Source: Candidatus Danuiimicrobium aquiferis
Lineage (GTDB): Bacteria; Omnitrophota; Omnitrophia; Omnitrophales; Danuiimicrobiaceae
Assembly (NCBI GenBank): GCA_001804285.1
Contig: MHFR01000051.1
Span: 46,926 to 110,925, forward strand
Direction: 5' to 3'
DNA length: 64,000 bases
The translations under genes were made by a program, and so were the position numbers. Of this stretch, positions 6,643 through 27,417 are shown piece after piece. The notes beneath the pieces were generated by a model that was not told the origin of the DNA, did no database searches, and was given only the letters and a program-made list of their open reading frames with translations. How positions within the stretch are numbered: position 1 is the stretch's first letter; the number at the start of each line of letters is the position of its first letter.

Positions 6643-6718
6643 GTCATCCCCGCGAACGCGGGGATCCAGTAGAACCTAAAGACAACTTGGCTGGATTCCC
6701 GCTTTCGCGGGAATGACA
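6643..6718. repeat. Family-A palindromic repeat element (twin hairpins, ATTCCC-N8-GGGAAT core), intergenic uxs/rmlD
   Basis: GTCATCCCCGCGAACGCGGGGATCC ...spacer... GGATTCCCGCTTTCGCGGGAATGACA. The termini TGTCAT...ATGACA are inverted. Confidence 0.8.
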
Positions 6719-6755
6719 TAAGAACACAATTTTATTTGCATGCCCAGCATCTTTT

Positions 6756-7640: not shown

Positions 7641-7665
7641 TCGAAACCTTTTTCTTCGGGAAGGC

Positions 7666-8643
7666 TTATTTTAAGGTATACCGATCCGCTTTTAACTTTC
7701 GCCACCAGGCTTCGTTTGCGCGGTACCAATCAATGGTTTTGCGGAGATTGTCGTGAATGGTTGATGTGATTTCGAAGCCAAGAGCTTCAAGTTTAGACAT
7801 ATCCAGGCTATACCGGAAATCGTGAGCGAGACGGTCTTTCACATATTGAATCATCTCTTCGCCTTTTCCGAATTCTTTTAAAATCATTCCCGTTAATTCA
7901 ATATTGCTTAATTCACATCTGCCGGCAACATTATAAATTTCGCCGATTTTACCGTGTTCGAAAACAAAACTGACCGCTCTTGCCGTGTCTTCGACATATA
8001 ACCAATCTCTTACATTTCCCCCTTTTGCGTATAAAGGGACCTTTTTCCCTTCAATTAAGTTCGTAATAAAGAGCGGAATCACCTTCTCCGGGAAATGATA
8101 CGGGCCATAGTTATTTGTGCAGCGCATAATGATGACCGGAATGCCGTGTGTTTTGTGATAGGCAAGCGCAAGGAGGTCGCTCGCTGCTTTTGCTGCCGAA
8201 TAAGGGCTGCTGGGGTCAAGTGGAAAGGTCTCAGTAAACGATCCCTGTTTGATTGACCCGTAGACTTCATCAGTCGAAAAATGGATAAATCTCTTAAGTT
8301 TCGCGTTCTTTGCGGCATTTAATAATGTGTTCGTTCCCAGCACATTGGTGCGAACAAATTCATCGGGTGAATCAATCGACCGGTCGACGTGCGTTTCTGC
8401 GGCAAAGTGAATGACGGAATCAACGCGGCTCATGAGGGATTTTACCAATTCGGCATTGCAGATATCGCCGTGGACAAATTCATAACGCGGGTTTGTTTCG
8501 TGTTCGACCGTGTTCGACCGCAGGCCGGCGTAGGTCAGTTTATCGAGATTGATAACGGAAATATCTTTGAACTTGTTCAGGAAATATCTGAGGAAATTCG
8601 AGCCGATAAAGCCCGAACCACCTGTCACTAAAACGCGGTTCAT
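7666..8643 (-). CDS. rmlB: dTDP-glucose 4,6-dehydratase
   Basis: MNRVLVTGGSGFIGSNFLRYF ... YGPYHFPEKVIPLFITNLIEGKKVPLY is the RmlB signature. The start overlaps the rmlA stop by 1 nt. Confidence 0.9.
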   Translation of the reverse strand: MNRVLVTGGSGFIGSNFLRYFLNKFKDISVINLDKLTYAGLRSNTVEHETNPRYEFVHGDICNAELVKSLMSRVDSVIHFAAETHVDRSIDSPDEFVRTNVLGTNTLLNAAKNAKLKRFIHFSTDEVYGSIKQGSFTETFPLDPSSPYSAAKAASDLLALAYHKTHGIPVIIMRCTNNYGPYHFPEKVIPLFITNLIEGKKVPLYAKGGNVRDWLYVEDTARAVSFVFEHGKIGEIYNVAGRCELSNIELTGMILKEFGKGEEMIQYVKDRLAHDFRYSLDMSKLEALGFEITSTIHDNLRKTIDWYRANEAWWRKLKADRYTLK

Positions 8644-9368
8644 TACGATGACTCCGCCTTGAGCGCCGCCAATTTATTTGCGTGCAGCAAAGAATCGAAC
8701 GTTCCGGCATCCGTCCAGTAGCCTTTGAGAATATCATATTGCATGGAACCGTCTTTAATATAGCAGTTATTGACGTCACTGATTTCAAGTTCGCCCCGTT
8801 TTGAAGGTTTTAATTTTCTGCAAAACTCAAATACACGGGAGTCGTACATGTAAATTCCCGTAACGGCATACTGACTTTTGGGCTTTTTTGGTTTTTCCTC
8901 GATATTGACGATTTTTCCGTTTTTAAACACGGGAACGCCGAACCGTTGAGGATCGGTTACTTCTTTTAAAAAAATCCGCGCACCGCGTTTTTGTTTTTCA
9001 AATTTCTGGACGGCTTCTGACAAATTGTCTTCCAGAATATTATCTCCCAGAACAACGACCACCTTGTCACCCGAAACGAAATGTTCAGCCAGGCTCAATG
9101 CTTCGGCAATTCCACCCTCGCCGCGCTGGTAGGTATAATATAAATCCTTCAAACCGAATTCACTTCCGTTTCCCATCAGCTTTAGAAAATCACCGGCCGC
9201 GTTTCCGCCCGTCACAATCATAATATCTTCGATGCCTGATTTAACTAAAGTTTCGACGGGATAATAGATCATCGGTTTATCGTACACAGGAAGCAAATGT
9301 TTATTCGTGACACGGGTCAGCGGTGAAAGCCTCGTCCCCAATCCTCCTGCCAATACAACGCCTTTCAT
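8643..9368 (-). CDS. rmlA: Glucose-1-phosphate thymidylyltransferase (short form)
   Basis: MKGVVLAGGLGTRLSPLTRVTNKHLLPVYDKPMIYYPVETL is a sugar nucleotidyltransferase motif (GGxGTRL). Confidence 0.8.
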   Translation of the reverse strand: MKGVVLAGGLGTRLSPLTRVTNKHLLPVYDKPMIYYPVETLVKSGIEDIMIVTGGNAAGDFLKLMGNGSEFGLKDLYYTYQRGEGGIAEALSLAEHFVSGDKVVVVLGDNILEDNLSEAVQKFEKQKRGARIFLKEVTDPQRFGVPVFKNGKIVNIEEKPKKPKSQYAVTGIYMYDSRVFEFCRKLKPSKRGELEISDVNNCYIKDGSMQYDILKGYWTDAGTFDSLLHANKLAALKAESS

Positions 9369-10878: not shown

Positions 10879-13197
10879 TTATACTGTTGTGGTTGATTGA
10901 ATAGCGGAGCGATCCGGAACGGTAGTAACCCAATCCCCCAGCCCAGTACCCTGCGATGAGCCTTCAATGGTATCGCTGATTCGAGGATTGGAATAAGAAG
11001 CTCGGTGTCCCGTGTGAAGATTGATAGCCGGGTAAGCTTTTAGGATTAATTCAACAAATATTTCTTTATTAAGCTGTTTGTCGGCGGCTGTTCTTTCTGA
11101 GTTCCGGACATTCAAGCCGAAGTCGAGCCACCAGTCGTGCAGGTCTCGGCGTGCCCGCAATTCCCATTCTTGCCAGTCAGCTTCTGTGGCTTCGTAGCGC
11201 GCATAACTGCCCAAACTCCAGCGGCTATTTAATTTATACATCGCATCCACGGTGATTTGGTTATCTTTGTTATCAATGGTTCCGGATGTTTCACGTGTCT
11301 TAATATATCGATGGCCAATGGCCAAAAAAAGATTCCCCGGCTCAAAAATTGCGTCGATATTATTAGAAGAAACATTTTGAGAAACGAAATCATAACGTGT
11401 ATCCATTCGGAATGAGAGCCAGTCGTACGGCCTTAAAATGATTTCCTGACGGGCTTCCGTGAATTTATCGGCGCCCGTTCTGGAAGTTTCATTGTGCGGG
11501 CCGAATGAAAGGTCAAGGTATGTATTAAAACTGACTAAATCGACTCGCTGCAGCTGCTCCCCGACGACGTGTTTTGTTTGAATCCGGTTTTCCACACCGA
11601 ACGTAATGACATCCTGAAGGCCAAGATTATCTCCGCGACCCGTCGCAACGACATCAGAAATTTTCTTTGTTACGATTTGGTTTCCGCTAAAGGAAACCAG
11701 AGGCCGCATTAAATGACGGAGTTGATTAATTTCGATTCCTCCAAATTTTCCTTTCGTATCCCATGTTCTATAAAATTTCGTATTGAGATCGATTCCCGAT
11801 CCCGCAGAATACCGGTTAGCGGCGGCTTTTGTGACGCGATCTTTCGTGTAAATGTCATCACGCATATAAACGTAGGGAATGAGATTGTAATGCTTCATGA
11901 TTCGAAACGGATAGGAAATTTCTTGATCCGTGTAAAACTGAACGGTGTTGGGACCATCAGGAGCAAATCTCTGTTTTTGGTTAAAATTAACAAAACCTTC
12001 TTCGTTGGTGTAATAAAATCCTGTCCCAAAAAGAGGTTTTCGCAACCAATCAAAAATAATTTCAGGTGTTTTTTCGCCAACGGTAGAGAAATCGTTCGTT
12101 CTTTTTTGGAAGTTAGCAAGTAAACTATATTGCCGTGCATTCCGGACAATGCTGATGAGAGATTTCGGATCAATTTCTTCGCGGTATTCTCCCTCGAAAA
12201 AGTCCTGCAAAAAGCGTTCATCGCTAATTTCGTTCCATTGCACATCAAGTACCGTGAGCGGATCGAGGCGCATCTTATGATTAATGGTGACTCGTCCTCG
12301 ATATTCCTTTGTTTTTTTCGTGTACGGATTCGTTTCTTTTTCATCCGGAGTTTTTTTGTCATGAATTCCGTATAATTTGATCTGTCCGACTCCTGCACGC
12401 TCAAACTTATAATCAAAATCCACGCCCGCACCGAAGCCCCGTTTTTGATAATAGTCTAAATGCGCAGTGCCTTTGATATTCTTATTAATCGAGAAACCCT
12501 TAGAAGTTAAAACGTAAGCGCCAAAGTCATCGGAATAACCCGGTTGAACATTTAACATGGTGTCATGATTGAGCGGCATTTGGAAATAAGGCCACCAAAA
12601 AACCGGCGTTTCTAAAATCCGGAATGTCACGTTTGTTGCGACAATTTTATCATCGGGATAAATGGTTACATTTTTGGCGTGAATATCGTAATGAGGATGG
12701 GACATGTTACAAGACGTGAAATACGCATCGTGGGCTTTAACTTTGCCTTTGTTGATTTGTTCAATTTTCTCGGCGTATCCATACCATGGATATTGATATA
12801 GCCGCGCGTTATCAAACGTTCCCTTTCGGTCATCGAAATCAAAGTAGGCGCTCTCGCCCGAAATCAGACTATCCTTTCCTTGCCTTAGAACCACGTGCCC
12901 TTTTGACCAACCTTCTTTTGTATCCACGTTAATTGAAACATTATCCGCCGTTAGTTCGATATCGTCCTGTGTCACAACGGCATTTCCGACCCCGATTAAC
13001 TTTCGATTTTGCCGATCAAACTGCAAATCGTCGGCAACTGCTTTAATCTGGTCTTGCTCGATTAAAGTTTCCGAATAAGCTTTGACTAAACAAAGAAAAG
13101 CGAAGATGAGTCCGCACAAAAACGCAAGTGCACGATACCACTTACTCTTTTCATTTAACTTCTGATTGATTCTGTCGGCAGAAAAACTCTCACGCAT
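10879..13197 (-). CDS. lptD: LPS-assembly outer-membrane protein LptD (OstA family)
   Basis: An OstA-like N-terminal domain (LIGVGNAVVTQDDIELTADNVSIN ...), plus YFTSCNMSHPHYDIHAKNVTIYPDDKIVATNVTF and a large beta-barrel region. The first ATG is 3 codons after the TTG at 13206. Confidence 0.8.
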   Translation of the reverse strand: MRESFSADRINQKLNEKSKWYRALAFLCGLIFAFLCLVKAYSETLIEQDQIKAVADDLQFDRQNRKLIGVGNAVVTQDDIELTADNVSINVDTKEGWSKGHVVLRQGKDSLISGESAYFDFDDRKGTFDNARLYQYPWYGYAEKIEQINKGKVKAHDAYFTSCNMSHPHYDIHAKNVTIYPDDKIVATNVTFRILETPVFWWPYFQMPLNHDTMLNVQPGYSDDFGAYVLTSKGFSINKNIKGTAHLDYYQKRGFGAGVDFDYKFERAGVGQIKLYGIHDKKTPDEKETNPYTKKTKEYRGRVTINHKMRLDPLTVLDVQWNEISDERFLQDFFEGEYREEIDPKSLISIVRNARQYSLLANFQKRTNDFSTVGEKTPEIIFDWLRKPLFGTGFYYTNEEGFVNFNQKQRFAPDGPNTVQFYTDQEISYPFRIMKHYNLIPYVYMRDDIYTKDRVTKAAANRYSAGSGIDLNTKFYRTWDTKGKFGGIEINQLRHLMRPLVSFSGNQIVTKKISDVVATGRGDNLGLQDVITFGVENRIQTKHVVGEQLQRVDLVSFNTYLDLSFGPHNETSRTGADKFTEARQEIILRPYDWLSFRMDTRYDFVSQNVSSNNIDAIFEPGNLFLAIGHRYIKTRETSGTIDNKDNQITVDAMYKLNSRWSLGSYARYEATEADWQEWELRARRDLHDWWLDFGLNVRNSERTAADKQLNKEIFVELILKAYPAINLHTGHRASYSNPRISDTIEGSSQGTGLGDWVTTVPDRSAIQSTTTV

Positions 13198-14602
13198 ACG
13201 CAACAACCCTATTTCGCCCTTCTTCTTTAGCGCGATAAAGCGCTTGGTCGGCTTTTTGAATCAGTTCATCCATGATCGCCTGCTGATTATTTTCATCGCC
13301 CGATTTTTCCAGATCATCCGGAAACGCACTCGTTCCAATGCTCACCGTCATTTTAATTTCTTCGTCATAAATCCGCAAATGTTTGCGCGCAACCGAAGAC
13401 CGGATACGTTCGGCCAATTCCATGCTTTTACTTTTATCAATTTCGGGAGCGACAATGATGAATTCTTCCCCGCCAAACCGGCCCAACACGTCGACTCGCC
13501 GGATATTTTCGCGAATGACCTGCGCGACCTGCCGCAAAGCTTTATCGCCCACCAGATGACCGAATTTATCATTATAACTTTTGAAATGATCAACGTCTAC
13601 CATTAAAACGGATAATGGGAATTTGTAACGCAAGGCGCGCCCTAATTCTTCTTCAAAACGTTCCATGAAGTGCCGGCGAACAAAAATTTTTGTTAATCCG
13701 TCGAGAATTGAAATTTCTTTGACGGTTTCATAGAGCTGAATTTTCTGAATTTGCAATGCAAGCTGCGATGCCATGATTTCAAACTTGGGAAAATCCGACA
13801 TGTTCCCTCCCTCGATTACCACGAGTGCGATTGGTTTTTGTTTTACGAGGAGTGGAAATATCCAAAGTGGCATTTCGATTTCGAGAGAGCTCTTATCGAG
13901 AGTGCCATGATCTGATTTTTTTTCAAACTTAATGACTTGGGACGACCCTGTTAGAACTTCCAGACAGAGTTTTGCAAATTCGAGATTTTCTTCGTCATTT
14001 AAGCGTTTATGGTTTCCGAAAGAAAAGACATGCCTGACCTGTTCAGAAACTCCTTCTGTATTTTCGGATAAAATGATAGTCCCTGCAGAAAAAGCCACCT
14101 CCGGTGTCATTTTGCGGTCAATCGCCTGTAGTAATTCCGAGAAGCTTAAACAATCATTAAAATCCCGGGCCATTTCGAAAACCTTGATTAAACCGCTCAC
14201 CTGTCTTTCCAGATAGTTCAAGCTTTCAATCCGGGCATCATAGCGATCTTTGATGGCCTGCATTTCATTAATCGTATTTTGCTTTTTTTCCCCGGACCGT
14301 AGTATTGTTTTCTCCCAAATCTTTTGATGCAAGTAATAGGTGCATAACAAGCCGCTGATAGCCACGGGGATTACTAAATAAAAAAGATTCATGGTTTTAA
14401 TTAACGAAATCGCCATTGCCAGTAAAAGCAAATTTGCCACGAATATTAAAAGGGCCATTTGTTTTCGCATCCACAGCACCAGCATGATTAAAAAAAACGG
14501 AGGCAAAAAGAAAAATAGTTTCGAGGGGTCTTTAAAGGCGGCAATTTGAGCCCACATGAGGAAAGCAATCAAGCTCGTTAAAAGACAGATGCGCTTCAAC
14601 AT
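13190..14602 (-). CDS. Membrane-anchored diguanylate cyclase (TM helices - coiled coil - GAF-like - GGDEF)
   Basis: RHFMERFEEELGRALRYKFPLSVLMVDVDHFKSYNDKFGHLVGDKALRQV ... LGRFGGEEFIIVAP contains an intact GGEEF motif. There are N-terminal TM segments. Confidence 0.8.
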   Translation of the reverse strand: MLKRICLLTSLIAFLMWAQIAAFKDPSKLFFFLPPFFLIMLVLWMRKQMALLIFVANLLLLAMAISLIKTMNLFYLVIPVAISGLLCTYYLHQKIWEKTILRSGEKKQNTINEMQAIKDRYDARIESLNYLERQVSGLIKVFEMARDFNDCLSFSELLQAIDRKMTPEVAFSAGTIILSENTEGVSEQVRHVFSFGNHKRLNDEENLEFAKLCLEVLTGSSQVIKFEKKSDHGTLDKSSLEIEMPLWIFPLLVKQKPIALVVIEGGNMSDFPKFEIMASQLALQIQKIQLYETVKEISILDGLTKIFVRRHFMERFEEELGRALRYKFPLSVLMVDVDHFKSYNDKFGHLVGDKALRQVAQVIRENIRRVDVLGRFGGEEFIIVAPEIDKSKSMELAERIRSSVARKHLRIYDEEIKMTVSIGTSAFPDDLEKSGDENNQQAIMDELIQKADQALYRAKEEGRNRVVAYA

Positions 14603-16086
14603 ACTTTATTCCTGCCTTGTTTCTTTGCTTGATAGAGGCGCTTATCCGCAATTTGGATTAACTCTTCCGAATCAAGTGTGTCATCCGGAATTGAAGCTAC
14701 GCCGATAGAAACGGTGATCGGAATGAATTCACGACGGACGGAAATTTCAAGTTTTGAAACTTTTTCCCGGATCGATTCGGCAAGCGCAAGCCCCTCCTTG
14801 ATTCCGACCTTGGGAAGAAGAATTGCAAATTCTTCTCCGCCGTAACGGGCCACAATCGCATGACTCGCTTCTTTCGCGAGAAGCTCGGCGGTCTTGATAA
14901 GAATAAAATCTCCAATTCCATGGCCATATTTGTCGTTACATTTTTTAAAATGATCAAGATCGCACATCAGAAGCGTCATGGGCGCGTTTGTCAATAAACT
15001 GCGCTTATGTTCGTCCGCGAGGCGCTCCAAGAAATGCCGGTGAACATATAAATTAGTCAGTGAATCGCGGATTGCAAGTTCTTCCGTTTTTCGGAATAGA
15101 ATAGAATTTGATATGGCTGATGACGCCAACATGGACACAGCATCCAGCAGTCGCAAATCGTCGGTCGCAAAGGTTTCGGGTTCTCTCGCGTTTACACGGA
15201 GCGTGCCGACAACCTTCCCTTCATGTAAAAGAGGGGACGCAATGACACTCCTGACGTTTTCAAGGGAAGATGCTTTTTTCATATCGAAGCGGAAATCTTT
15301 CACCGTGTCTGAGATAAGCAACGATTGTTTGTTGCGCAGGATCCAATAGTCAAAAATATCCCCCATTTTCGCTTTCATTTTTTTGTCTCCGGCCGGGCTT
15401 TTGGCCGAGATGAGGGATAAATTTTCATTTTCAGCATCTGCGAGAAACAAAAAACACCAATTTCCTCGTTGGATTAATTCGATTGTTCTGGAGACGATGA
15501 TATCGCTGAGTTCTGAGAGTGATAGACTGGTTGAAAACTCATTTGCGATATTTCGGAGATTATAGTAACTCGCATATTTCTCGAAAGAAACGCTAATGCT
15601 CGTCCCCTTCTCTTTATAGGAAAGCTCAAGATCATTTCGCTCATTGATTGCTTTTTCAATTTCAATTTCATCTGCAATCATTTCTGTCTCCCGTAAACGG
15701 TCGTAGTACATGAGCAACGCAAACAGGATGATTTGCCCCAGAGCGAACACCATGAAATAAACATTAGACGTGAGACTAAATGTTAAAATAGAAAAGAAAA
15801 TTCCCGCGATAAAAAAAAAGATGGCCCCATTTCTCCGGAACGCCAACCATGAAAACAGGGTCGGCATCATAAATAAAAACCCGATCAAGCCCAGATAAAT
15901 TTGTTGAGGCTCGGGAGAAGATCGATATTGGTTGAGTACGTAAATATTGATGACGGCCAAAACAATAACGCTGCATATTGCAAAAAGGAGAAAGATTTTG
16001 CGCTCTATATTCTGAAACTGGAAAACAACACCTTTATCCATTTGATTTAGCACCTTTGAATCGCCAATTAATTCATACTGCGTCAT
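14596..16086 (-). CDS. Membrane-anchored diguanylate cyclase (TM - GAF - GGDEF)
   Basis: RHFLERLADEHKRSLLTNAPMTLLMCDLDHFKKCNDKYGHGIGDFILIKT ... ARYGGEEFAILLP is a GGDEF domain with GGEEF. A GAF-like region precedes it and there are 4+ N-terminal TM helices. Confidence 0.8.
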   Translation of the reverse strand: MTQYELIGDSKVLNQMDKGVVFQFQNIERKIFLLFAICSVIVLAVINIYVLNQYRSSPEPQQIYLGLIGFLFMMPTLFSWLAFRRNGAIFFFIAGIFFSILTFSLTSNVYFMVFALGQIILFALLMYYDRLRETEMIADEIEIEKAINERNDLELSYKEKGTSISVSFEKYASYYNLRNIANEFSTSLSLSELSDIIVSRTIELIQRGNWCFLFLADAENENLSLISAKSPAGDKKMKAKMGDIFDYWILRNKQSLLISDTVKDFRFDMKKASSLENVRSVIASPLLHEGKVVGTLRVNAREPETFATDDLRLLDAVSMLASSAISNSILFRKTEELAIRDSLTNLYVHRHFLERLADEHKRSLLTNAPMTLLMCDLDHFKKCNDKYGHGIGDFILIKTAELLAKEASHAIVARYGGEEFAILLPKVGIKEGLALAESIREKVSKLEISVRREFIPITVSIGVASIPDDTLDSEELIQIADKRLYQAKKQGRNKVC

Positions 16087-18264: not shown

Positions 18265-19701
18265 ATGGATGTTAAGCTGACACAAAATCAAACCCAGAAG
18301 CTTATACTAATACCCCAGTTACGGCAATTTCTAGAACTCCTTGAGATTCCATCGATTGAGCTAATCCAGAGAATCGAGCAAGAACTGGTCCAGAATCCAA
18401 CGCTTGAAGAAAAAAAGTCAGAAGAACAAATCGAACTTCAGGAATCGTCTAAAGAAGAGGAAATTCCGTCAAATGAAAGAGATGAAACGATGCGTGAATA
18501 TCTCGAGGCCATGGACGCGTCTTCCGAAGCGAATCACAACGACGGCTCACTTCAGGATTTGTCGTTTGCATTACCGGCAGATATTCAGAAAAAACAACTC
18601 TATCGGGAGTCTCTACTCACCAACAATCGATCACTTGCGAATTATTTAGAAGGGCAGTTGGGAGTTCTTGACCTTTCCCCCGATGAGTCTAAAATCGCGA
18701 AAGAAGTTATCGGCAATATTGATGATGAAGGCCGGTTGGTTGCGACCAACGAAGAAATAGCAAAAGCCACTTCTTCGACGGCGGAGATTGTTGAAGAAAT
18801 CATCAAAAAAATTCAGCGATTAGACCCACCGGGGGTGGGCGGAAGGAATCTCCAGGAGACTTTGCTTTTGCAACTGCAAAGAAAATCCGGCGATACATCG
18901 TTAACGCGGACGATTGTCGAAAAATATATGCCGCAGCTTGAAAAAAAACAATTTGATCTGATTGCCAGAAGTCTGTCTGTTTCGGCGGAAAAAGTTAAAG
19001 CGGCCTACCGGCAAATCATTGAATTAGAACCGTATCCTGGCCGCATTTTTTTGCAGGACACCTCTCAGGTGATCGTTCCTGACGCCATCGTTGTTCCCAA
19101 TCCAGAAAATGAGGACGAATTTTTAATTGATGTTACCAATGACTATATTCCCCAGCTTCGGATCAATCCCCTCTACCGTCAAATGTTGAAAGACAAGACC
19201 ACGGATCCGGCGACCCGTCAATTTTTAAGAGAAAAAATTCAGGCAGGGCTCGATCTCATCCGGGCCATTCTGCAGAGGAAATCAACCATTCGTCAAATCA
19301 CAGAAGAGCTTGTTCAGAGGCAAAAGGATTTCTTCTCGCTCGGGTTTTCGCATCTCAGGCCTTTGCGCTTGAAAGATATTTCCGAGAAAATTGGTGTTCA
19401 CGAATCAACGGTGAGCCGGGCCATTCAAAATAAATATATTTCAACTCCGCAAGGGACCATTCCCTACAAAAGTTTCTTTTCGTCAAAAATGGAGTCTGAA
19501 AACGGATCGAATGAGTCTCAAAAAAGCGTGATGGAAAGATTAAAGCATATGATCGCGAGCGAAAATAAGTCAAAGCCTTACAGTGATGCGGAGCTCGTTA
19601 AAATGCTCGATAAGGACGGTATTAAAATTTCAAGAAGGACCGTTGCGAAGTACCGCGATCGATTAAAGCTTTTACCCACCTATTTGAGGAAAGAACGATA
19701 A
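18265..19701 (+). CDS. rpoN: RNA polymerase sigma-54 factor
   Basis: MDVKLTQNQTQKLILIPQLRQFLELLEIPSIELIQRIEQELVQNP is a sigma-54 N-terminal activator-interacting region. The C-terminal RpoN box is RRTVAKYRDRLKL. Confidence 0.9.
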   Translation: MDVKLTQNQTQKLILIPQLRQFLELLEIPSIELIQRIEQELVQNPTLEEKKSEEQIELQESSKEEEIPSNERDETMREYLEAMDASSEANHNDGSLQDLSFALPADIQKKQLYRESLLTNNRSLANYLEGQLGVLDLSPDESKIAKEVIGNIDDEGRLVATNEEIAKATSSTAEIVEEIIKKIQRLDPPGVGGRNLQETLLLQLQRKSGDTSLTRTIVEKYMPQLEKKQFDLIARSLSVSAEKVKAAYRQIIELEPYPGRIFLQDTSQVIVPDAIVVPNPENEDEFLIDVTNDYIPQLRINPLYRQMLKDKTTDPATRQFLREKIQAGLDLIRAILQRKSTIRQITEELVQRQKDFFSLGFSHLRPLRLKDISEKIGVHESTVSRAIQNKYISTPQGTIPYKSFFSSKMESENGSNESQKSVMERLKHMIASENKSKPYSDAELVKMLDKDGIKISRRTVAKYRDRLKLLPTYLRKER

Positions 19702-19960
19702 TTGTATGTATATGTGATAGTCTGCGGTTTTATAATGACTTGTATAGCCCACGTCTCTTCCCCCTTTGACTGAAGCTTATTTTGAGATCTTTTAGTGATT
19801 TAATAAGTGTCAGATTTTTTTCACTAAATTTGCACGGAGGCACAGGTGGTGTTAACCTTAAGATAAGAGGTCATGCTGCGGGCATTGGAAAATGAGCAAA
19901 CAGTTCATTTGCTTGATTAAATGCCGATATGTTAAGTGGTAATTTTAAAAAGGTTATCCA

Positions 19961-20470
19961 GTGGAACAAAAACAATTTGTTAAAACACTGAATGGTTTGG
20001 CCGGGAATCAAAAGTCCGGATTTACATTAGCCGAACTTTTGGTTGTCACTGTGATTGTTGGAATTTTGGGGATCCTTTCTATTCCGAAGTTTTATGCCCA
20101 AATCGAAAAGGCGAAAATATCTCAGGCTTTGGGTGTTTTATCGGCCATTCAAAAAAACGAGAAAATTTATCGCGCTGAACATGGTTATTACAAAGCATTA
20201 TATGAGATAGCAAGTACCGCAGATTGGGGAGGGATCGGAATGATGGATCCTTCTCCGTTTCTGCTTTCATCGCCCGATGGTGAGTTTAAGTATGAATTCC
20301 GCTTCTTAATGGACTCATATGGATATTTTGCGTTTGCAACACGCACAACGAAAAATGATTATAAAGGATATTCGGGTAAAAGAATTCGGGTTCGGCATTC
20401 TGACGGAAAAGCGGTCTGTAGCGCTGATCAATCTGACCACCCGTTGATTCCATTTTCAGCGTGTTGGTAG
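19961..20470 (+). CDS. Type IV pilin / pseudopilin paralog 1 (prepilin-type N-terminal cleavage/methylation domain)
   Basis: The ~20-aa leader ends ...NQKSG|FTLAELLVVTVIVGILGILSIPKF, a class III signal with Glu at +5. The C-terminal motif is CSADQSDHPLIPFSAC. Start is a GTG. Confidence 0.75.
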   Translation: MEQKQFVKTLNGLAGNQKSGFTLAELLVVTVIVGILGILSIPKFYAQIEKAKISQALGVLSAIQKNEKIYRAEHGYYKALYEIASTADWGGIGMMDPSPFLLSSPDGEFKYEFRFLMDSYGYFAFATRTTKNDYKGYSGKRIRVRHSDGKAVCSADQSDHPLIPFSACW

Positions 20471-20489
20471 ATTTGATAAAATGAGGTGA

Positions 20490-21002
20490 TTGACAGTGAA
20501 AAAAAATATATTGTACACCGTATTAAAAAACAAAAAAAAAGCGGTGTCAGGCTTTACACTTGCCGAACTTTTAATTGTTACTGTGATTGTGGGAATTTTA
20601 GGGATTATTTCTATGCCGAAGTTTTATGCCCAAAAGGAAACGGCGAAAATATCGGAAGCTTTAAGTATTTTATCAGCAATTCGTCAAAATGAGCGAGCTT
20701 ATTTTCTTGAAAAGGGCTCTTACAAAATAATAGTTCCTAACGCAAATGCGACAGATTGGGGGGAGATCGGAATGCTGGATCCTTCTCCGGATCCGCCCGC
20801 AGGTGAGTTTGACTATGAATTCAAATCCGGGGAGGAGGGGATATACTATGCGTTCGCAACACGCACGGCAAACAATAATTATATGGGATATGCTGGTAAA
20901 TTCGTTCGGGTTCGGGATAGCGATGGAAAAGCTGTCTGTTCTGCTGATACCGATCACCCTTTGATTTCCGATTCAGCGTGTTTGCAGCCTTGGCCGAGTT
21001 GA
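20490..21002 (+). CDS. Type IV pilin paralog 2
   Basis: ...KKKAVSG|FTLAELLIVTVIVGILGIISMPKFYAQKE, with C-terminal CSADTDHPLISDSAC. GAGGTGA RBS at ~20484; the true start is probably the GTG at ~20496. Confidence 0.75.
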   Translation: MTVKKNILYTVLKNKKKAVSGFTLAELLIVTVIVGILGIISMPKFYAQKETAKISEALSILSAIRQNERAYFLEKGSYKIIVPNANATDWGEIGMLDPSPDPPAGEFDYEFKSGEEGIYYAFATRTANNNYMGYAGKFVRVRDSDGKAVCSADTDHPLISDSACLQPWPS

Positions 21003-21016
21003 TAGAAACGAGGTGA

Positions 21017-21562
21017 ATGACAATGAAAGAAAACATATTGCAGGTTTTGTTGAAAAATAGAAAACAACGACTGTCGGGTTTTACACTTGCCGAACTTCTA
21101 ATCGTCATTGTAATTTTGGGCGTATTGGGAGCGATTGCGCTTCCTAAATATTTTCCGCAATCCGAAAAAAGTCGCCTATCCGAGTCATTTGAAATTTTAG
21201 GTGCCATTCGAAAAGGACAGGAAGCATACCGATTAACAACCCCTGGATTTACTTATTTGAGTATGGGCGATTGCAATAGCCCTGCCAACGCTCCGACTTC
21301 CCAAGGTAATAGTGCCAATGCGAACCAGTGGGCGCGTTTAGGAATGGACCGCCCTGCCGGTCAGTTTTTTGATTTCTGCACGAGAAGTGATTCTCCGTAT
21401 ACCACGTTTGTTGCTTATGCGTACAGAAAATCATCAGGGCCCTTTGGGTCTACTTATGGGACAAAATATGTCGGAATTACACAAACTGGTTTTTTTTGCG
21501 GTGATCATCCATTGATTCCGACTTCAGTTTGCCAAAGCGGTACTTGCAGTGCTTGTCCTTAA
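21017..21562 (+). CDS. Type IV pilin paralog 3
   Basis: ...RKQRLSG|FTLAELLIVIVILGVLGAIALPKYF, with C-terminal CGDHPLIPTSVCQSGTCSAC. GAGGTGA RBS; the true start is probably the second ATG at ~21023. Confidence 0.75.
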   Translation: MTMKENILQVLLKNRKQRLSGFTLAELLIVIVILGVLGAIALPKYFPQSEKSRLSESFEILGAIRKGQEAYRLTTPGFTYLSMGDCNSPANAPTSQGNSANANQWARLGMDRPAGQFFDFCTRSDSPYTTFVAYAYRKSSGPFGSTYGTKYVGITQTGFFCGDHPLIPTSVCQSGTCSACP

Positions 21563-21606
21563 TCTGAGGCTTTGCTTTTTTTGATATTTTAAAGGAAACA
21601 GAGCAA

Positions 21607-22116
21607 ATGAAATATTTTTTAAACGGAACCAATCAAAAACTAAGGCGAACCAATTTATTTTCACCTCGGAGTTTTCACTTTGCCCGCATTTCACATTCCG
21701 GTTTTTCTTTGACAGAACTGCTTATTACCGTGACTGTGCTCGGTATTTTAGCCGCTGTATCGGTTCCTGTTTATTTGAATCACCTGGAAAAAGCGCGCAT
21801 TTCTGAAGCGATTCAATTGTTGAACCGGGTTCACATAGGAAAACAGCAATTTGCGGCTATTAGGGGTGCAACAGCAACAACATGGGCTCAAGTTGGAATG
21901 GCTACCCCCACTCCGGTGCCCCCGTGTTGGAGTTATGCAACTCAAAATATCCCCGGCATAGGAATAGTATTTCGCGCAACTCTTAATAATTCTCAAAGCA
22001 AATATAACGGGAACAACATTATACTTTGTAGAACCGGTAAGTTTTGTGGTACCCATCCCCTCATCCCGGGTTCACTATGTGTCAATTCCAGTTGTTCTGA
22101 TTGTACTGGCTGTTAG
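21607..22116 (+). CDS. Type IV pilin paralog 4 (33-aa leader)
   Basis: ...ARISHSG|FSLTELLITVTVLGILAAVSVPVYL, with C-terminal CGTHPLIPGSLCVNSSCSDCTGC. AAGGA RBS. Confidence 0.7.
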   Translation: MKYFLNGTNQKLRRTNLFSPRSFHFARISHSGFSLTELLITVTVLGILAAVSVPVYLNHLEKARISEAIQLLNRVHIGKQQFAAIRGATATTWAQVGMATPTPVPPCWSYATQNIPGIGIVFRATLNNSQSKYNGNNIILCRTGKFCGTHPLIPGSLCVNSSCSDCTGC

Positions 22117-22400
22117 CCTTCAGAAGGTATGATTGGCATCTGGGCGCATCTTCATAACTCATTTCATATCAATAAGTTACATTACAAATATTTGCATTTA
22201 CCACCTTGTTTTTTCATATAAGTGGGTTATACTTTTAATAGGAGTAGCGGTGTAAGGTTTTTTGAGAAGAACAAATTTTTTTTGCCCACTTTTTTAAGAC
22301 TTTTTTAGAAAGACGAAATTAGGAGAAAGATGAGGAGCTAATGGTGAAGACCGGACAGTGGTTCAGTGAAAAACAGAGATATATAAAAAATGTCGGCGGA

Positions 22401-22811
22401 ATGAAGTCTGGATTTTCACTTGTAGAAGTGATTATTAGTATGATGGTCATTGCGATCGTTGCCCTGGGAGCATTTGCTGCTATGAACTATTCTAAAAAAT
22501 CCTCTAAGGATGCTGAAGAAAAAATGATCGCTGTTTCTATCGTTGAGAGAAAACTGAATGAGTTTCGAACTCTCAACGTGTTAGATCTTAACGTCTATAA
22601 CGATTTCCAAAATACAGTAACCCTCGATACCAATACCATCAATGGTGACATTTCATCTTTTCTGAATAATGGGCTCATTCAGGACAGGATTGTGCAGCCA
22701 AATCCCCCAAACGACCCGGCCTATAAAGAGGTGACTGTACAAGTGACATGGCTGGATAGATTGAATTTCTCTCATGAGGTGACTATGACCGTTACTCTTT
22801 TAGCAGCGTAA
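22401..22811 (+). CDS. Minor (pseudo)pilin with short leader
   Basis: MKSG|FSLVEVIISMMVIAIVALGAF is a prepilin-type N-terminus. The internal start is preferred over the ORF-track 22341. Confidence 0.65.
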   Translation: MKSGFSLVEVIISMMVIAIVALGAFAAMNYSKKSSKDAEEKMIAVSIVERKLNEFRTLNVLDLNVYNDFQNTVTLDTNTINGDISSFLNNGLIQDRIVQPNPPNDPAYKEVTVQVTWLDRLNFSHEVTMTVTLLAA

Positions 22812-22929
22812 AAGTTTTCTAATTTTAGGTTTGAAAGGTATTGAGATGGAACTGATTCATCGCGAAAAAAATAATGAAAGCCGTAAATGCGAAGTGAAAC
22901 CCGCACGGGTTATTAGAAGCTTTCATTTG

Positions 22930-23532
22930 ATGCGGGGGTTTACTCTTCTTGAGCTGATTATCGCGATGATATTCGTCTCCATCATTGTGCTGGGAAGCTC
23001 CGCCCTTCAATTTTCCGTTGTTCAGCAAGCGAACAAAGTCGGACTTGAAATGAGAGTCCGGCAACGGATGGATTTCGTTTTTCGACACATGGAACTCATG
23101 TTGGCCAACGCCACAAATGTGAGCGTTACTTATAGTCCTGCCGTTGAAAGTCCCACAGGGTTCAATACCTCAACCTTGTGTTTTACCTATGCAATAGACG
23201 GTATCAACTATTGTTATAAATATTGGTATAACTATGCGGACACTTATGGGAGTACGTCTAATTCTATTCGCCTTGATTCCCCGACCAGATGGATAACCAT
23301 TCTGTATTCTACCGGTGGTAGCACCCCTGATCAAAAGGCTCAAACACGGATTGTGCCGGGACCGGGGACAAGAGGCTTTGAGTTATCACCAGACAAGAAA
23401 ATTGTTTATGTTAGTTTGAAAGGACAGATTGCTATGGGCAAAGTTAATAAGCTCATAACCATGCCAAGCTCATATCGTTACATTGACATGCCGCCAATAC
23501 GCAAATCGATTTATATGCCGATGTCGTCTTAG
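22930..23532 (+). CDS. Minor pilin (PilW/FimT-like)
   Basis: MRG|FTLLELIIAMIFVSIIVLGSSALQF. The ORF-track start at 22831 would give a 36-aa leader, so the true start is uncertain. Confidence 0.6.
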   Translation: MRGFTLLELIIAMIFVSIIVLGSSALQFSVVQQANKVGLEMRVRQRMDFVFRHMELMLANATNVSVTYSPAVESPTGFNTSTLCFTYAIDGINYCYKYWYNYADTYGSTSNSIRLDSPTRWITILYSTGGSTPDQKAQTRIVPGPGTRGFELSPDKKIVYVSLKGQIAMGKVNKLITMPSSYRYIDMPPIRKSIYMPMSS

Positions 23533-23551
23533 AAAGGAGATTGAGAACTGT

Positions 23552-26500
23552 ATGGCAAAGGGACAAGAAGTACTCATCAATCAAAATCCGGCAATCATGA
23601 AAGCGCGCTCCAAGCGTAATAGCAGGAATGCTAATACTTTTGGATTTGCTTTATTGTATGCGATTTTCTTGGCGATAGCGGTTGAAATAGGGATTATCGG
23701 AAGTCTGTACACGATGGCCCGGCATCAAAGAGAGGTGCAGACGGATCTCAATAGAGTTCAAATGCGCATGTTGAACGTTTCTGCCGTGAATGAGGTATTG
23801 AGAAATTTTAAAGAATATTTAGGAACACATCCGAATTTTCCGCAACATGATGTCAATTCAGAGGTGCATGATTTTGATAATCCCTTATCCTCTTGGTATA
23901 ACAATGCAAGTACGGGATTTAAAAATCGTTATTCTCATGTATCCGGATTTTTCGATTTAGACTTATCCAATTTAAAAGTTCGGAAAGTTGCGGAGTCCGA
24001 CGGAGGAGGTGTTTGGTGGCGTGAATATGAGATTTCATCGCGTGTTAAGAGCCTATGGGTACCCATGCAATCTGAGATTAAACAAAAAGTTAGAATTTCG
24101 AACGGCAAATTGTTTGATTTTTCTATTTTTTCGAATGTGGATTTAGAAATTCAGGGCGGCCCGAGTTTTGATCTTCAGGGGCCTATTTTTTCTAACGGTA
24201 ATATTTATTTGATGAACAATCCGGGAAGTCTATTAAAACTACTGCGTCCGAGCAACATTGATAGTCCGGAAAGCCGAGAACCCTATATCATGAGAGCTGC
24301 CGGTAACATCTATTTTGGCCAGAATCGGGCCTTTGCGCCTAATTATCTTTTAACTAATGCCGGATATAGCCAGAACGTCCCTTCAGAGTATACGGACCCG
24401 CTGAACAATGGACTGGAAATTAACGTTGCGATGGATTTAAGTTCATATTTACCGGTTTTCCGTTTTGCTCCCTTTATTTACCACTTTAATAATGGAACTA
24501 GTTTTAAAACTGCTTCGGGAGGAACTCCGGGAAATTCTCCCGAAGTTTGTGTGCAAAACAATCAAAATTGCGTATGGGTGGATACCGGCGGAACATTTAC
24601 TAAGCTGGTGCCTTATCATCCCCCAATGAAATCAATTACATGGTTTTATCCGTCGTATGGCTCGAGGTATTACACAGTGGTCGCGGGGTCCCAATATGGA
24701 GAACCGAGTTCTCAAGGTTTTATTTCTATGTCAAATGCGGTTGATATAAATAATTATCCGGGAATTGACCCCGCTTGGACCCCCGCTGCCCCGACAACTT
24801 ATTCACCCCCTGTTAATCCAAGCTGGCAGAATAGTTTATTTAACGGTTCTGGCGGACAATCAGATGTTATTGCTCAAGGAATGCCCACCAGATCGATCCC
24901 AATTGGTGATCCGGTCAATCCAAGTGGTGCGCATTTATTGATAGAACCCATCATGGATTCTGACACAACGGCAATAAAAGAAAGTAAATTTCAACAGAAG
25001 GCAATCGATTTCGGAAGCGGAATCGGCTTTAATATTCATTGTCTTAAATCAGAAATACTAGAACCGATATACGTAGCGATATACGATTGTGCAGACGCTC
25101 AATATATTTCGCCTGATTTCCAAGCCTTGATAGATCTGAATGTGGCCCAGTATCAAAATACAGCTTCATTTTTTGATTTTCGGATAGCGAGTCCCCGAAC
25201 ATATATTTCTATAGATATCAATAAGCTCTTACAATTTTATCCCCAAGCGAAAATGATCTATGTGAGGTTGTTGAATGGTCTTATGGCGCCTTTTTCTAAG
25301 CCCCCCCGAGCGCTTAGGATAATTAATGCCAAGCGCCTTCCCAAAACCGGCCTCACGATTGCAACAAATGGAAGAATTTATATTCAAGGTAACTATAATA
25401 CTTATTTGTATGAAAATGCTGATGGTTCTTCAAGAATGGCAGCCGATGGTACAACACTTTGTCAAGATATTCCGGCTGAAGACAGTGATTCAGGTAATGC
25501 GGCTCCCTGCTATTGTACCGATACGGAATGGGATAATGATGCATGTGCCCCGCCGCCCGCCGCCATTTTTAGCGACAGTTTTGTTGCTTTGTCTTCTAAT
25601 TGGTCTGATACTTATACATCTACTATGCCGCCGGTAGAAGGTCGTCTTGCCTCTGATACGATAATCAATGTCGGAATCGCAACGGGTATCCGCAGATCGC
25701 AACTTCTTAATTCGACTTATTTCTCGACTTCGTGCGTAGCAGATATGAGCAATTGTGAAGCCAATGGTACTTGGCTTAGTCCAGATGATTCAACGACCTA
25801 TTATAGAGGCTCGGATAAGAGCTATTATTATGTGAATAAATGTTCTGGGAAGTATTTAACTGCCTATGCTACTTCTAAGGCTAAAGCGGGTGGTGATACG
25901 ACTTCAACCAAATTGCCTCCGCCGCCCGTAACCGATTTGAACGATCCTGCTCCGGAGTGTGAGGCATACAATGCGAAAACCGCTACTGAAAAATATAATG
26001 CGGACTCTTGGCGATTACCTATTTTCACCGATATGATCCGTCAACCAGGCGGCGAGTATAGTTGGAAAGATCACAAGTCGGACTCCGCACCAGTGCCGGT
26101 GCGGGCGTTTAAAGGAGTTTATTTCCGGAGATTGAATTCTTCGAGAATATTTTTTGATGGCACTATATGTGTTTTATCCGGTCCTTGTCCGGGAGAAAAT
26201 ACTATCTGCCCGGATGGAACAGTTTGTCAAGGAACGCGGGGCATGATAAATAACTCGCGATGTACTCTGGTGAGTGCTGAGACGGGTGCCTATAGCTGTA
26301 ATTCTTGTGAAACACCTCCCGCTTGCACTTGTTATCAGGGACAGGCGTGTGACCCAAATGCGGCTAACTTTGATCCAACGGTCGTGTATGGCGGGGACTA
26401 TTATTACAATTTATATACTGTTGAATATAGCGGCGGGCTTGAAAATGTTGTTAACCTTCAGGAGAATTGGGCGGGAAAATCATTACGATTTTTGGGGACG

Positions 26501-26677
26501 ACGGCAATCACATGGTATGCAGACGGATTGAATAGCTATCCGTACAAGACAAGTTACTATGTGGCACCGAATCGAAAGTTCAGATATAACGGCCAACGAA
26601 TGGTTATGGATCCGCCGCCCGGAACTCCGGGTACGTTTGCGATGATAAAAAAAGAATCGACCGAGAAAATCTATTAG
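23552..26677 (+). CDS. Large PilX-N-domain protein (1042 aa), putative pilus tip/minor-pilin adhesin with a Cys-rich C-terminal region
   Basis: AAAGGAGA RBS at ~23533-23540, then the ATG at 23552. The N-terminus KRNSRNANTFGFALLYAIFLAIAVEIGIIG is a PilX-like hydrophobic N-domain. The C-terminal third carries many Cys in short spacings (CYCTDTEWDNDAC, CPGENTICPDGTVCQG, CNSCETPPACTCYQGQAC). No PilY1 beta-propeller signature was recognised. Confidence 0.6.
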   Translation: MAKGQEVLINQNPAIMKARSKRNSRNANTFGFALLYAIFLAIAVEIGIIGSLYTMARHQREVQTDLNRVQMRMLNVSAVNEVLRNFKEYLGTHPNFPQHDVNSEVHDFDNPLSSWYNNASTGFKNRYSHVSGFFDLDLSNLKVRKVAESDGGGVWWREYEISSRVKSLWVPMQSEIKQKVRISNGKLFDFSIFSNVDLEIQGGPSFDLQGPIFSNGNIYLMNNPGSLLKLLRPSNIDSPESREPYIMRAAGNIYFGQNRAFAPNYLLTNAGYSQNVPSEYTDPLNNGLEINVAMDLSSYLPVFRFAPFIYHFNNGTSFKTASGGTPGNSPEVCVQNNQNCVWVDTGGTFTKLVPYHPPMKSITWFYPSYGSRYYTVVAGSQYGEPSSQGFISMSNAVDINNYPGIDPAWTPAAPTTYSPPVNPSWQNSLFNGSGGQSDVIAQGMPTRSIPIGDPVNPSGAHLLIEPIMDSDTTAIKESKFQQKAIDFGSGIGFNIHCLKSEILEPIYVAIYDCADAQYISPDFQALIDLNVAQYQNTASFFDFRIASPRTYISIDINKLLQFYPQAKMIYVRLLNGLMAPFSKPPRALRIINAKRLPKTGLTIATNGRIYIQGNYNTYLYENADGSSRMAADGTTLCQDIPAEDSDSGNAAPCYCTDTEWDNDACAPPPAAIFSDSFVALSSNWSDTYTSTMPPVEGRLASDTIINVGIATGIRRSQLLNSTYFSTSCVADMSNCEANGTWLSPDDSTTYYRGSDKSYYYVNKCSGKYLTAYATSKAKAGGDTTSTKLPPPPVTDLNDPAPECEAYNAKTATEKYNADSWRLPIFTDMIRQPGGEYSWKDHKSDSAPVPVRAFKGVYFRRLNSSRIFFDGTICVLSGPCPGENTICPDGTVCQGTRGMINNSRCTLVSAETGAYSCNSCETPPACTCYQGQACDPNAANFDPTVVYGGDYYYNLYTVEYSGGLENVVNLQENWAGKSLRFLGTTAITWYADGLNSYPYKTSYYVAPNRKFRYNGQRMVMDPPPGTPGTFAMIKKESTEKIY

Positions 26678-26715
26678 CCCGGATTTCTCATCACTAATGA
26701 GAGATTCCGCTTTGT
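26676..26715. repeat. Family-B fragment forming a hairpin just 3' of the 1042-aa pilus protein gene
   Basis: TTAGCCCGGATTTCTCATCACTAATGAGAGATTCCGCT matches 39603-39640. The internal palindrome is TCTCAT-cacta-ATGAGA. Confidence 0.6.
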
Positions 26716-26743
26716 AATGAATTAAGTTAATATGGGCTAACAT

Positions 26744-27289
26744 ATGAAAAATGACGTATTAAAAAAATGCATCAAAAAAAAAGAACATCCCGGCAAAGGC
26801 GTGACGCTCACAGAACTGCTGGTAGTGGTGGTGATCGTGGCCATTGGGTCAAGTATGTTTTTACCAAAAATTGATAAGGGGATTGAGAATCAAAAAGCGC
26901 TCAACGCGCTTAATACCCTTCGAACGATTTCCCAGGCGCGGCGGATGTATGTTATGGAAGTGAGCGGACTTTTGACCACGAACGTGCTGCCATCGGGGAA
27001 CCCTATGTGTGTTGCCGGTACTTCAGCAATTGATGAATTAGTTAACAAGGGGTATTTAGATCGAAATGATTTCGCACCCGGTTTTACTTATACTTTTGGT
27101 AATACTAGTGCCTTTTTTGTCAGCAATAGAGATGTTATCGCAAGAACTCCGGAAGGAAGGCAGATTAGTTTTGAAAGTCAGACATGGTGTGCTGGTAATC
27201 CCGGAGGCATCGGAGGAGATAGCTATATCAAAGATAGTGATGGCTACATTGGCCCCACAACAGGATTAGGCTCCGACCAAGATTACTAA
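26744..27289 (+). CDS. Pilin-like protein (prepilin-type N-terminus, G|V variant)
   Basis: ...HPGKG|VTLTELLVVVVIVAIGSSMFLPKI. Length is 181 aa. Confidence 0.55.
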   Translation: MKNDVLKKCIKKKEHPGKGVTLTELLVVVVIVAIGSSMFLPKIDKGIENQKALNALNTLRTISQARRMYVMEVSGLLTTNVLPSGNPMCVAGTSAIDELVNKGYLDRNDFAPGFTYTFGNTSAFFVSNRDVIARTPEGRQISFESQTWCAGNPGGIGGDSYIKDSDGYIGPTTGLGSDQDY

Positions 27290-27344: not shown

Positions 27345-27417
27345 AGCTGGCGGTCGGAGTCGAACCGACGACCTGCTGTTTACGAAACAGCTGCTCTGCC
27401 AACTGAGCTACACCAGC
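27345..27417 (-). tRNA. tRNA-Thr (anticodon CGT)
   Basis: The reverse complement is GCTGGTGTAGCTCAGTTGGCAGAGCAGCTGTTTCGTAAACAGCAGGTCGTCGGTTCGACTCCGACCGCCAGCT. The acceptor stem is 7 bp with one G-U pair. The anticodon stem GCTGT/ACAGC encloses loop TTCGTAA, and the T-loop is GGTTCGACTCC. No CCA is encoded, and a T-run follows. Confidence 0.85.

Follow-up and report, generated by a model that had tools for sequence, protein, structure and literature searches.

Four tandem HPxxP-type type IV pilin genes heading a predicted pilin operon in Candidatus Danuiimicrobium aquiferis (Omnitrophota)

The genome assembly of Candidatus Danuiimicrobium aquiferis (phylum Omnitrophota; GCA_001804285.1) carries on contig MHFR01000051.1 four consecutive type IV pilin genes, here named P1 to P4. 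They occupy positions 19961 to 22116 of the analysed stretch of 64,000 nucleotides (nt; positions 46,926 to 110,925 of the contig, forward strand), hereafter called the window. We consider it probable that they are full-length, translation-competent paralogs of one pilin family, defined below and termed HPxxP, that they head an operon, that they arose by lineage-specific duplication, and that their products are used mixed or alternately. Sequence profiles and structural models place the four proteins in the type IV pilin superfamily with a predicted type IVa fold, and their only departure from that type is in leader length, an obsolete criterion. The features of the array, with lengths in amino acids (aa), are as follows.

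19961-20470, forward strand: P1, HPxxP-type type IVa prepilin, GTG start, 169 aa; AAGG ribosome-binding site 7 nt upstream; 20-aa leader; two Cys (C153, C168)
20417-20464, forward strand: Cys-bracketed loop C153-C168 of P1 with HPLIP, D-region equivalent
20483-20489, forward strand: GAGGTGA Shine-Dalgarno sequence of P2; P3 counterpart at 21010-21016, same spacing
20496-21002, forward strand: P2, HPxxP-type prepilin, GTG start, 168 aa; 19-aa leader MKKNILYTVLKNKKKAVSG; loop HPLIS
20937-20981, forward strand: matching loop of P2
21023-21562, forward strand: P3, HPxxP-type prepilin, ATG start, 179 aa; 19-aa leader MKENILQVLLKNRKQRLSG; six Cys
21497-21556, forward strand: matching loop of P3, Cys-rich tail included
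21607-22116, forward strand: P4, HPxxP-type prepilin, ATG start, 169 aa; predicted 32-aa leader; seven Cys
22045-22113, forward strand: matching loop of P4, tail included
18265-19701, forward strand: rpoN (sigma-54), upstream neighbour of P1, with Pfam domains Sigma54_AID, Sigma54_CBD and Sigma54_DBD

An initial annotation, made from the sequence alone, had described four paralogous type IV pilins in tandem, directly downstream of rpoN, and both statements are confirmed, the former by open reading frames (ORFs) and the PF07963 and TIGR02532 profiles. All four genes are intact, lie on the same strand, and possess a class III signal peptide and a ribosome-binding site of their own. Identical proteins have been deposited for Omnitrophica bacterium RIFCSPLOWO2_12_FULL_44_17, P1 as hypothetical protein A3G33_03395, and P2, P3 and P4 as A3G33_03400, A3G33_03405 and A3G33_03410. 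The mechanical ORFs of P2 and P3 are two codons longer (TTG at 20490 and ATG at 21017), and both of these starts abut GAGGTGA directly; the favoured starts lie 6 nt past GAGGTGA and are those of the deposited A3G33_03400 and A3G33_03405. With the best-supported starts, the gaps between P1 and P4 amount to 25, 20 and 44 nt; the genes are thus as closely spaced as first described, but the range of 14-44 bp given then came from the longer ORFs. The GAGGTGA-containing upstream region attributed to P2 and P3 is real, and the block common to both reads GAGGTGA-N-TGACA-N-TG (20483-20498 and 21010-21025), with equal spacing in the two genes. P1 and P2 share 60% protein identity, whereas the remaining pairs share 30-35%, in agreement with the earlier impression that P1 and P2 are alike and P3 and P4 more diverged. 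At the DNA level, identity among the paralogs reaches 76% at most.

The array is reproducible. The exact P2 protein is found on 24 contigs, 20 of which are represented by four places (ENA ERZ27254836, ENA ERZ4903070, Logan SRR3989338 and NCBI GCA_001804155.1) that carry the same genes in the same order as far as the contig reaches. These four assemblies come from different samples and different pipelines, and over up to 9.4 kb they are identical to the window or differ from it at 3 positions. An assembly duplication, named at the outset as what could undo the array, is therefore excluded, and the ceiling of 76% DNA identity among the copies likewise makes collapse or duplication by the assembler implausible. 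Beside these, a 1.1-kb ENA contig encodes a P4 variant of 96 aa (P0046), identical to P4 up to residue 69 (...ARISEAI) and followed by unrelated sequence; it is explained either by chimeric assembly or by a rearrangement within P4 at strain level.

With regard to superfamily membership, all four proteins score above threshold with PF07963 N_methyl (23.2-28.8 bits against a gathering score of 21.2) and with TIGR02532 (18.4-27 against a cut-off of 16.3), and a motif scan finds the cleavage-site motif G↓F(T/S)L(A/T)ELL in each. A lollipop fold is predicted, in which a long N-terminal helix packs against an antiparallel beta-sheet. The AlphaFold model of P1, built with family alignments, has a predicted local distance difference test (pLDDT) score of 87.2 and a predicted template modelling score (pTM) of 0.75, with a helix at residues 23-74, strands at 109-116, 121-128 and 141-145, and a C-terminal loop at pLDDT 87-88. 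The P4 model (pLDDT 78.4) has the same topology. In fold comparison, P4 scored 8.3 with PilE, 3.1 with EpsG and 2.9 with the type IVb CFA/III pilin, and Foldseek gave the same outcome more weakly. Sequence matches to solved pilins are confined to the N-terminal helix; the head domain alone found no match in a sequence search of the PDB, and no Pfam head domain is present in P1 to P4. The proteins share with type IVa pilins a Phe at position +1, a prepilin length in the 140-170 aa class and the closest head fold, while their leaders exceed the historical type IVa limit of <10 aa. Assignment to type IVb pilins, characterised by a long leader, a mature part of ~180-200 aa, a variable +1 residue and a large D-region, was considered and rejected.

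The head domain carries the signature of a family that we define here by two features, a score of at least ~95 bits with the family profile and the C-terminal motif G-x-[WYF]-x-G-x-H-P-x-x-P, of which HPLIP is the local form. P1 to P4 score 119-147 bits with the family profile and all contain HPLI(P/S), P2 having Ser at the last motif position. A profile search returned ~45 clear relatives, and an exhaustive search yielded at least 66 clusters (50% identity) at E<=1e-30, a number that rises above 150 when the threshold is E<=1e-23; every named member is from Omnitrophica or Omnitrophota. In a 43-sequence alignment (P1 numbering), conservation is 90% or higher at His160, Pro164 and W89 and in the N-terminal helix, and G93 and R128 are invariant (43/43). 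Among 92 motif-bearing relatives the consensus is G-[TV]-[WYF]-x-G-[TDN]-H-P-[FNYL]-[KGR]-P, and in 173 relatives the motif usually lies 2 residues from the C-terminus. HPLIP is thus not peculiar to the array, since the HPxxP motif marks a whole family. A genome scan for related loci matched otherwise generic pilins through the conserved N-terminal helix; among the matches listed, only those in L001, L003 and L074 cover the head domain. Passages retrieved by keyword from PMC10066038 and bioRxiv 10.1101/2023.11.21.568195 contain no mention of the family or of the HPxxP motif.

The four proteins end in C-x(2-6)-HPLI(P/S)-x-S-x-C. That HPLI(P/S) lies within a Cys bracket in every copy had been correctly seen; the loop formula C-x(3-5)-HPLIP-x-S-x-C given at the time applies apart from its spacing, since the residues between the first Cys and His are SADQSD in P1, SADTD in P2, GD in P3 and GT in P4, i.e. 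2-6 and not 3-5. After their Cys-stapled HPLIP, P3 and P4 continue into tails rich in CxxC motifs: C-GD-HPLIP-TSV-C-QSGT-C-SA-C-P in P3, with two Cys beyond the loop, and C-GT-HPLIP-GSL-C-VNSS-C-SD-C-TG-C in P4, with three. In the models, the loop is placed after the last beta-strand, between two cysteines, as in the D-region of type IVa pilins, so that the structure prediction proposed earlier for locating it points to a D-region equivalent. This loop is the best-conserved head segment of the distant paralogs (7-9 of 13-17 positions, against 6-9 of ~45 for the sheet), which favours a structural or binding role and speaks against diversification of the immune-evasion type. Cys residues on both sides of the motif occur in only 13 of the 173 relatives, and 61 have no Cys at all; at least one Cys follows the motif in 21 of the 92 motif-bearing relatives, and at least two in 8. 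Judged from these sequences, bracketing Cys and Cys-rich tails recur in the family, but in a minority of its members. The D-region disulfide is replaceable by other contacts in other pilins (review PMC4471445), which is consistent with the many Cys-free relatives.

The predicted leaders of P1 to P4 measure 20, 19, 19 and 32 aa, and the mature parts 149, 149, 160 and 137 aa. Mature domains of 137-160 aa had been called short; they are normal for type IVa pilins. The 19-aa leader pattern ascribed to P2 and P3 is well founded, as 11 of 19 positions are identical (MK-NIL---LKN-K---SG). Moreover, five residues kept in both leaders (N, L, N, S and G) are encoded by different synonymous codons in the two genes, indicating purifying selection on the translated peptide and not a recent DNA copy. 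The 19-aa leader of P8, the last pilin gene downstream (MKNDVLKKCIKKKEHPGKG), resembles those of P2 and P3. P4 has no other in-frame ATG, GTG or TTG ahead of the cleavage site, and its leader would thus be 32 aa under any canonical start. The called leaders of the 173 relatives have a median of 7 aa (quartiles 6 and 12), and only 26 reach at least 19 aa, some of them probably through over-extended gene calls; long leaders therefore appear to be a trait of the P1-P4 operon and not of the family. According to a review (PMC4471445), class III leaders span 6-26 aa overall and type IVa leaders reach up to 18 aa, and leader-length criteria for the type IVa and IVb subclasses are no longer valid; leaders of 18 aa have been reported for Streptococcus sanguinis PilE1 and PilE2 (bioRxiv 10.1101/459388). 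The leaders, described at first as unusually long, are long indeed (19-32 aa), but 18 aa was already known in type IVa and only the predicted 32 aa of P4 lies beyond the 6-26 aa range. If the predicted starts are right, the array is a further case of type IVa-fold pilins with leaders as long as those of type IVb.

P1 to P4 form the front of what the gene order indicates to be an eight-gene pilin operon extending to 27289, in which they are followed by I-like, J-like, giant K-like and H-like minor pilins.

22341-22811, forward strand: P5, PilV/GspI-like minor pilin, 156 aa; N_methyl; gspI 3.7e-7 and pilV 6.6e-7, both below cut-off
22831-23532, forward strand: P6, PilW/GspJ-like minor pilin, 233 aa as mechanical ORF; called start ~22846, 228 aa
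23483-26677, forward strand: large protein in PilX/GspK position, 1064 aa as mechanical ORF, ~1041 aa as called; no Pfam family
26744-27289, forward strand: P8, last pilin, H-like position, 181 aa; G↓VTLTELL; no HPxxP

This block has homologues in one related locus, L082, where blastp relates P5 to a 137-aa gene product (E 8e-7), the 1064-aa protein to one of 1333 aa (2e-56) and P8 to one of 183 aa (5e-15). The two large proteins share the block LFDFSIF..DLEI..GP....GPIF.NG..YLM, and the 1064-aa protein also matches cyanobacterial HpsA faintly and is probably a tip-located giant minor pilin or adhesin. A tRNA-Thr(CGT) gene (27345-27417, reverse strand) abuts the operon 56 nt past P8. With G+C values of 0.39-0.46, the operon is not anomalous in composition and gives no clear sign of a genomic island despite the adjoining tRNA-Thr; horizontal acquisition was considered and rejected on this ground.

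The genomic context of six relatives was looked up, that of the P0042 contig as a gene table only. A cluster recurs in them, consisting of PilM, PilN/O-like proteins, secretin, PilB and PilC, followed by three to five tandem pilins. In some relatives, the pilins are followed by genes for proteins of ~135-155, ~230-258, ~1300 and ~163-183 aa, and these by a response regulator, a Glycoamylase/CBM9 protein and a helix-turn-helix protein. When the pilin ORFs of seven related loci were classified one by one, a fixed triad emerged: a type ending in ...C..G...GC, then an HPxxP pilin (two in L081), then a third type. In five of the seven loci the last of these has ...YWPF or a similar W-P sequence at its C-terminus; the L090 gene is unclassified and the L091 tail differs. 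At least three of the seven loci have an I/J/K/H-like minor-pilin block after the triad. Triads were located as follows.

L081: 3905-5940
L082: 9506-11095
L084: 8822-10985
L089: 759-2284
L090: 6861-8944
L091: 4855-8943

Such a fixed order suggests that the three subunits are not redundant. An ordered pilin triad is not described in the literature passages that a keyword search retrieved. The window presents another picture, namely four HPxxP pilins, neither of the other triad types, and the same minor-pilin block (22341-27289); in addition, its module follows rpoN, whereas that of the relatives follows pilB-pilC. The four HPxxP copies, the lack of the other triad types and the rpoN-side position together point to expansion and relocation in this lineage, and a lineage-specific expansion of structural pilins is, from these comparisons, most likely.

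Two further features accompany the relatives' pilin arrays. In L089 (2313-8208), an STT3-family oligosaccharyltransferase and four glycosyltransferase-related genes follow the array, and in L081 (5985-8935) it is followed by two polytopic membrane proteins of ~490 aa each; this hints that the pilins are glycosylated in some lineages. The response regulator and the Glycoamylase/CBM9 protein (Glycoamylase PF10091 called in four of five loci) lie directly after the pilin module at the positions below, and both are absent from the module of the window.

L082: 17108-20242
L084: 11071-16178
L090: 9233-12104
L091: 14759-16456
L001: 1012-3678

Taken as a working model, the prepilins would insert in the inner membrane with their basic leader of 19-32 aa on the cytoplasmic side, and a prepilin peptidase encoded elsewhere would cleave after Gly-1. 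A PilB/PilC/PilMNO/secretin machine would then polymerise the mature subunits on a tip complex of the four minor pilins, the four HPxxP subunits forming a mixed filament or being used alternately; P2 and P3 would likely be the most abundant, given their Shine-Dalgarno sequences, the strongest of the four. The HPxxP loop, as D-region, may act as a disulfide-stapled latch that fixes the C-terminus to the sheet, and may present a conserved surface for subunit packing or adhesion. The array itself would have arisen by lineage-specific duplication of an HPxxP gene, not as a recombination cassette. Since all four genes look expression-competent, alternative or co-assembled subunits, as first suggested, remain the best reading of the array.

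Several points weigh against this model. Co-assembly of the four subunits is putative, and so is the latch role of HPxxP. The leader of P1 appears the least secure, with a GTG start, a weak AAGG and an internal TTG that would shorten it to 8 aa. Model confidence is low for the Cys-rich tails of P3 and P4 (pLDDT 56 for the P4 tail). A scan of 45 window ORFs turned up no Peptidase_A24 prepilin peptidase. Finally, the window's machine genes lie 18 kb off on the other strand, in another gene order and with short-leader GspG-like pilins of their own. This type IV pilus/type II secretion-like machine (40532-52681, reverse strand) is complete and the only one in the window. Its genes, in order of transcription, encode PilB/GspE, a ParA-like ATPase, PilM, PilN, PilO, a TPR-tailed secretin and PilC/GspF; after them come the gene of a GspG-like pilin, whose leader has 6 aa (MARKSG↓FTLIE), and more class III genes. 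The cluster lies directly downstream of a 3664-aa ORF (52972-63966, reverse strand) with almost no Pfam content. Its PilB and PilC are 43% and 34% identical to the relatives' proteins, and the gene order differs. It may or may not serve P1 to P4.

A different division of roles is possible, although we regard it as doubtful: one of P1 to P4 would be the bulk major pilin and the other three low-abundance accessory pilins that tune adhesion or another function, on the model of Pseudomonas aeruginosa PilE and of Neisseria PilV, PilX and ComP, which are shaped like major pilins. The low identity of P3 and P4 to P1 (30-35%) fits such a scheme, and the three distinct types in fixed order in the relatives suggest a division of labour. 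However, all four proteins bear the full family signature at 119-147 bits, and a separate, complete I/J/K/H-like minor-pilin set is already present downstream.

It is unlikely that P1 to P4 are pseudopilins of a type II secretion-like system, building a short periplasmic endopilus that pushes out exoproteins. Their N-terminal halves match TIGR01710 GspG (1e-9 to 8e-6), the UniRef label of P1 is 'GspG C-terminal domain-containing protein', a Glycoamylase/CBM9 gene adjoins the cluster in relatives, and four minor pilins also constitute the canonical type II secretion set; furthermore, passages retrieved from West-Roberts et al. 2023 (bioRxiv 10.1101/2023.11.21.568195) call comparable Omnitrophota loci type II secretion system-like. 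The GspG scores, however, amount to 25.9-38.5 bits against a cut-off of 88.85 and cover profile positions 1-59 only, there is no PF08334 T2SSG match, and the relatives' clusters include PilM_2 and PilO, alignment proteins of the type IVa pilus type. The identification as GspG major pseudopilin was rejected, the scores being below the TIGR01710 cut-off and the T2SSG domain lacking.

The initial annotation had also raised possible antigenic variation of the cassette, which in its Neisseria pilE/pilS form would mean one expressed gene diversified by gene conversion from donor copies. Tandem paralogs with variable central regions recall that arrangement, but this reading is largely refuted and now highly improbable. 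All four copies are complete, each with leader, start codon and ribosome-binding site; neither truncated silent copies of the pilS kind nor recombination tracts were found in the array; the longest exact DNA tract is 19 nt, between P1 and P2, the other measured pairs reaching at most 9 nt (the P2/P3 value was set aside as an artefact of overlapping query windows); no guanine-quadruplex (G4) motif occurs between 18 and 23 kb; no variation is seen in the array among the four separately sampled assemblies; and the C-terminal loop, where antigenic variation would predict hypervariability, is conserved. Just as improbable are electrically conductive 'e-pilins' for extracellular electron transfer, a concept that is itself disputed. 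The mature proteins contain 8.8-16.1% aromatic residues plus His, and conductive pilins are predicted in many Omnitrophota in passages retrieved from Seymour et al. 2023 (PMC10066038), but P1 to P4 are full-size with globular heads, unlike Geobacter-like truncated pilins, and no window gene ties them to respiration.

Returning to P1 to P4 as type IVa-fold structural subunits, they were compared with the major pilins N. gonorrhoeae PilE (1ay2), P. aeruginosa PilA (8tum, 1qve) and Dichelobacter nodosus FimA (3sok). They have in common Gly-1, Phe+1 and Glu+5, an alpha1 helix ~50 residues long that precedes a four-stranded sheet, a C-terminal loop pinned by a disulfide (predicted here) and a mature length of 137-160 aa. 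They differ in that their heads show no detectable sequence similarity to any solved structure, their leaders measure 19-32 against <10 aa, and the invariant HPxxP motif has no described counterpart. The PAK D-region C-TSDQDEQFIPKG-C resembles C-SADQSDHPLIPFSA-C of P1, a likeness to be taken as a lead and not as a test. With GspG they share a homologous N-terminal helix and a four-member minor-pilin set, but the fold match is poorer than with type IVa. The nearest functional analogy would be S. sanguinis PilE1 and PilE2, likewise tandem paralogous major pilins with long leaders (18 aa), which are both present in one heteropolymeric pilus (bioRxiv 10.1101/459388). S. sanguinis is a monoderm with two copies whose co-assembly is demonstrated, whereas the window has four, whose co-assembly is deduced. 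In Thermus thermophilus, PilA4 and PilA5 are structurally distinct from each other and do not form a tandem set of one family. As for Omnitrophota, passages retrieved from PMC10066038 and bioRxiv 10.1101/2023.11.21.568195 mention type IVa pili, type II secretion-like loci and class III signal peptide genes; the loci they describe, PilM-secretin-PilB-PilC with several class III genes, are like those of the relatives of P1 to P4, while the window module is detached from machine genes, follows rpoN, and has four HPxxP pilins and no triad.

The position next to rpoN looks incidental, since the relatives' array follows pilB-pilC and no sigma-54 promoter was found; a regulatory link is unsupported. 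None of the related loci examined has its pilin array after rpoN. The sigma-54 motif TGGCAC-N5-TTGCW occurs 28 times in the window, against 26.6 expected by chance, and no intact GG plus GC pair (-24/-12) lies upstream of P1, P2, P3, P5 or P8, nor of the relatives' first pilin gene; of the best candidates ahead of P1, the one at 19819 has no GG and the one at 19839 no GC. Sigma-70 promoter-like sites are at chance level (16 against 18.0), with none in the 259-nt gap between rpoN and P1. Terminator-like sites number 16 against a shuffle mean of 7.5 (~2x), none of them in 19700-19960 or 22117-22340, and the P4-P5 spacer shows no more folding potential than its shuffled counterparts (z +1.09).

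Elsewhere in the window, two adjacent GGDEF diguanylate cyclases, one with GAF, are encoded ~2 kb upstream of rpoN (13190-16086, reverse strand). The PilB-type ATPase at 50975-52681 has an MshEN domain, a domain that figures among the targets of cyclic di-GMP (PMC12448109). A sugar-nucleotide/glycosyltransferase cluster at 247-9368 encodes RmlA/B/D-like and GDP-mannose dehydratase-like proteins, two GT2 enzymes and one PMT_2 transferase.

One speculative proposal, to which we grant a small chance, is that the invariant HPxxP element constitutes a functional site undescribed in pilins, acting as a metal-binding or adhesive surface or as a subunit-to-subunit latch specific to the pili of ultra-small, host-dependent or predatory Omnitrophota, and that the four-fold expansion together with the conserved 19-aa leaders denotes a specialised heteropolymeric filament with its own processing route. 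In other respects, tandem pilin copies are an ordinary feature, and the general view of how type IV pili work is unchanged. Omnitrophota are uncultured, mostly ultra-small, and thought to attach to or prey on cells, which makes pili prime candidates for the contact. Many of them have in common a pilin family whose C-terminal signature is fixed, as well as three pilin types in a set order, and the profile and motif provide a handle for finding and comparing Omnitrophota filaments in metagenomes. Among these, one lineage is flagged in which the HPxxP type has most likely been amplified four-fold and moved away from the assembly genes.

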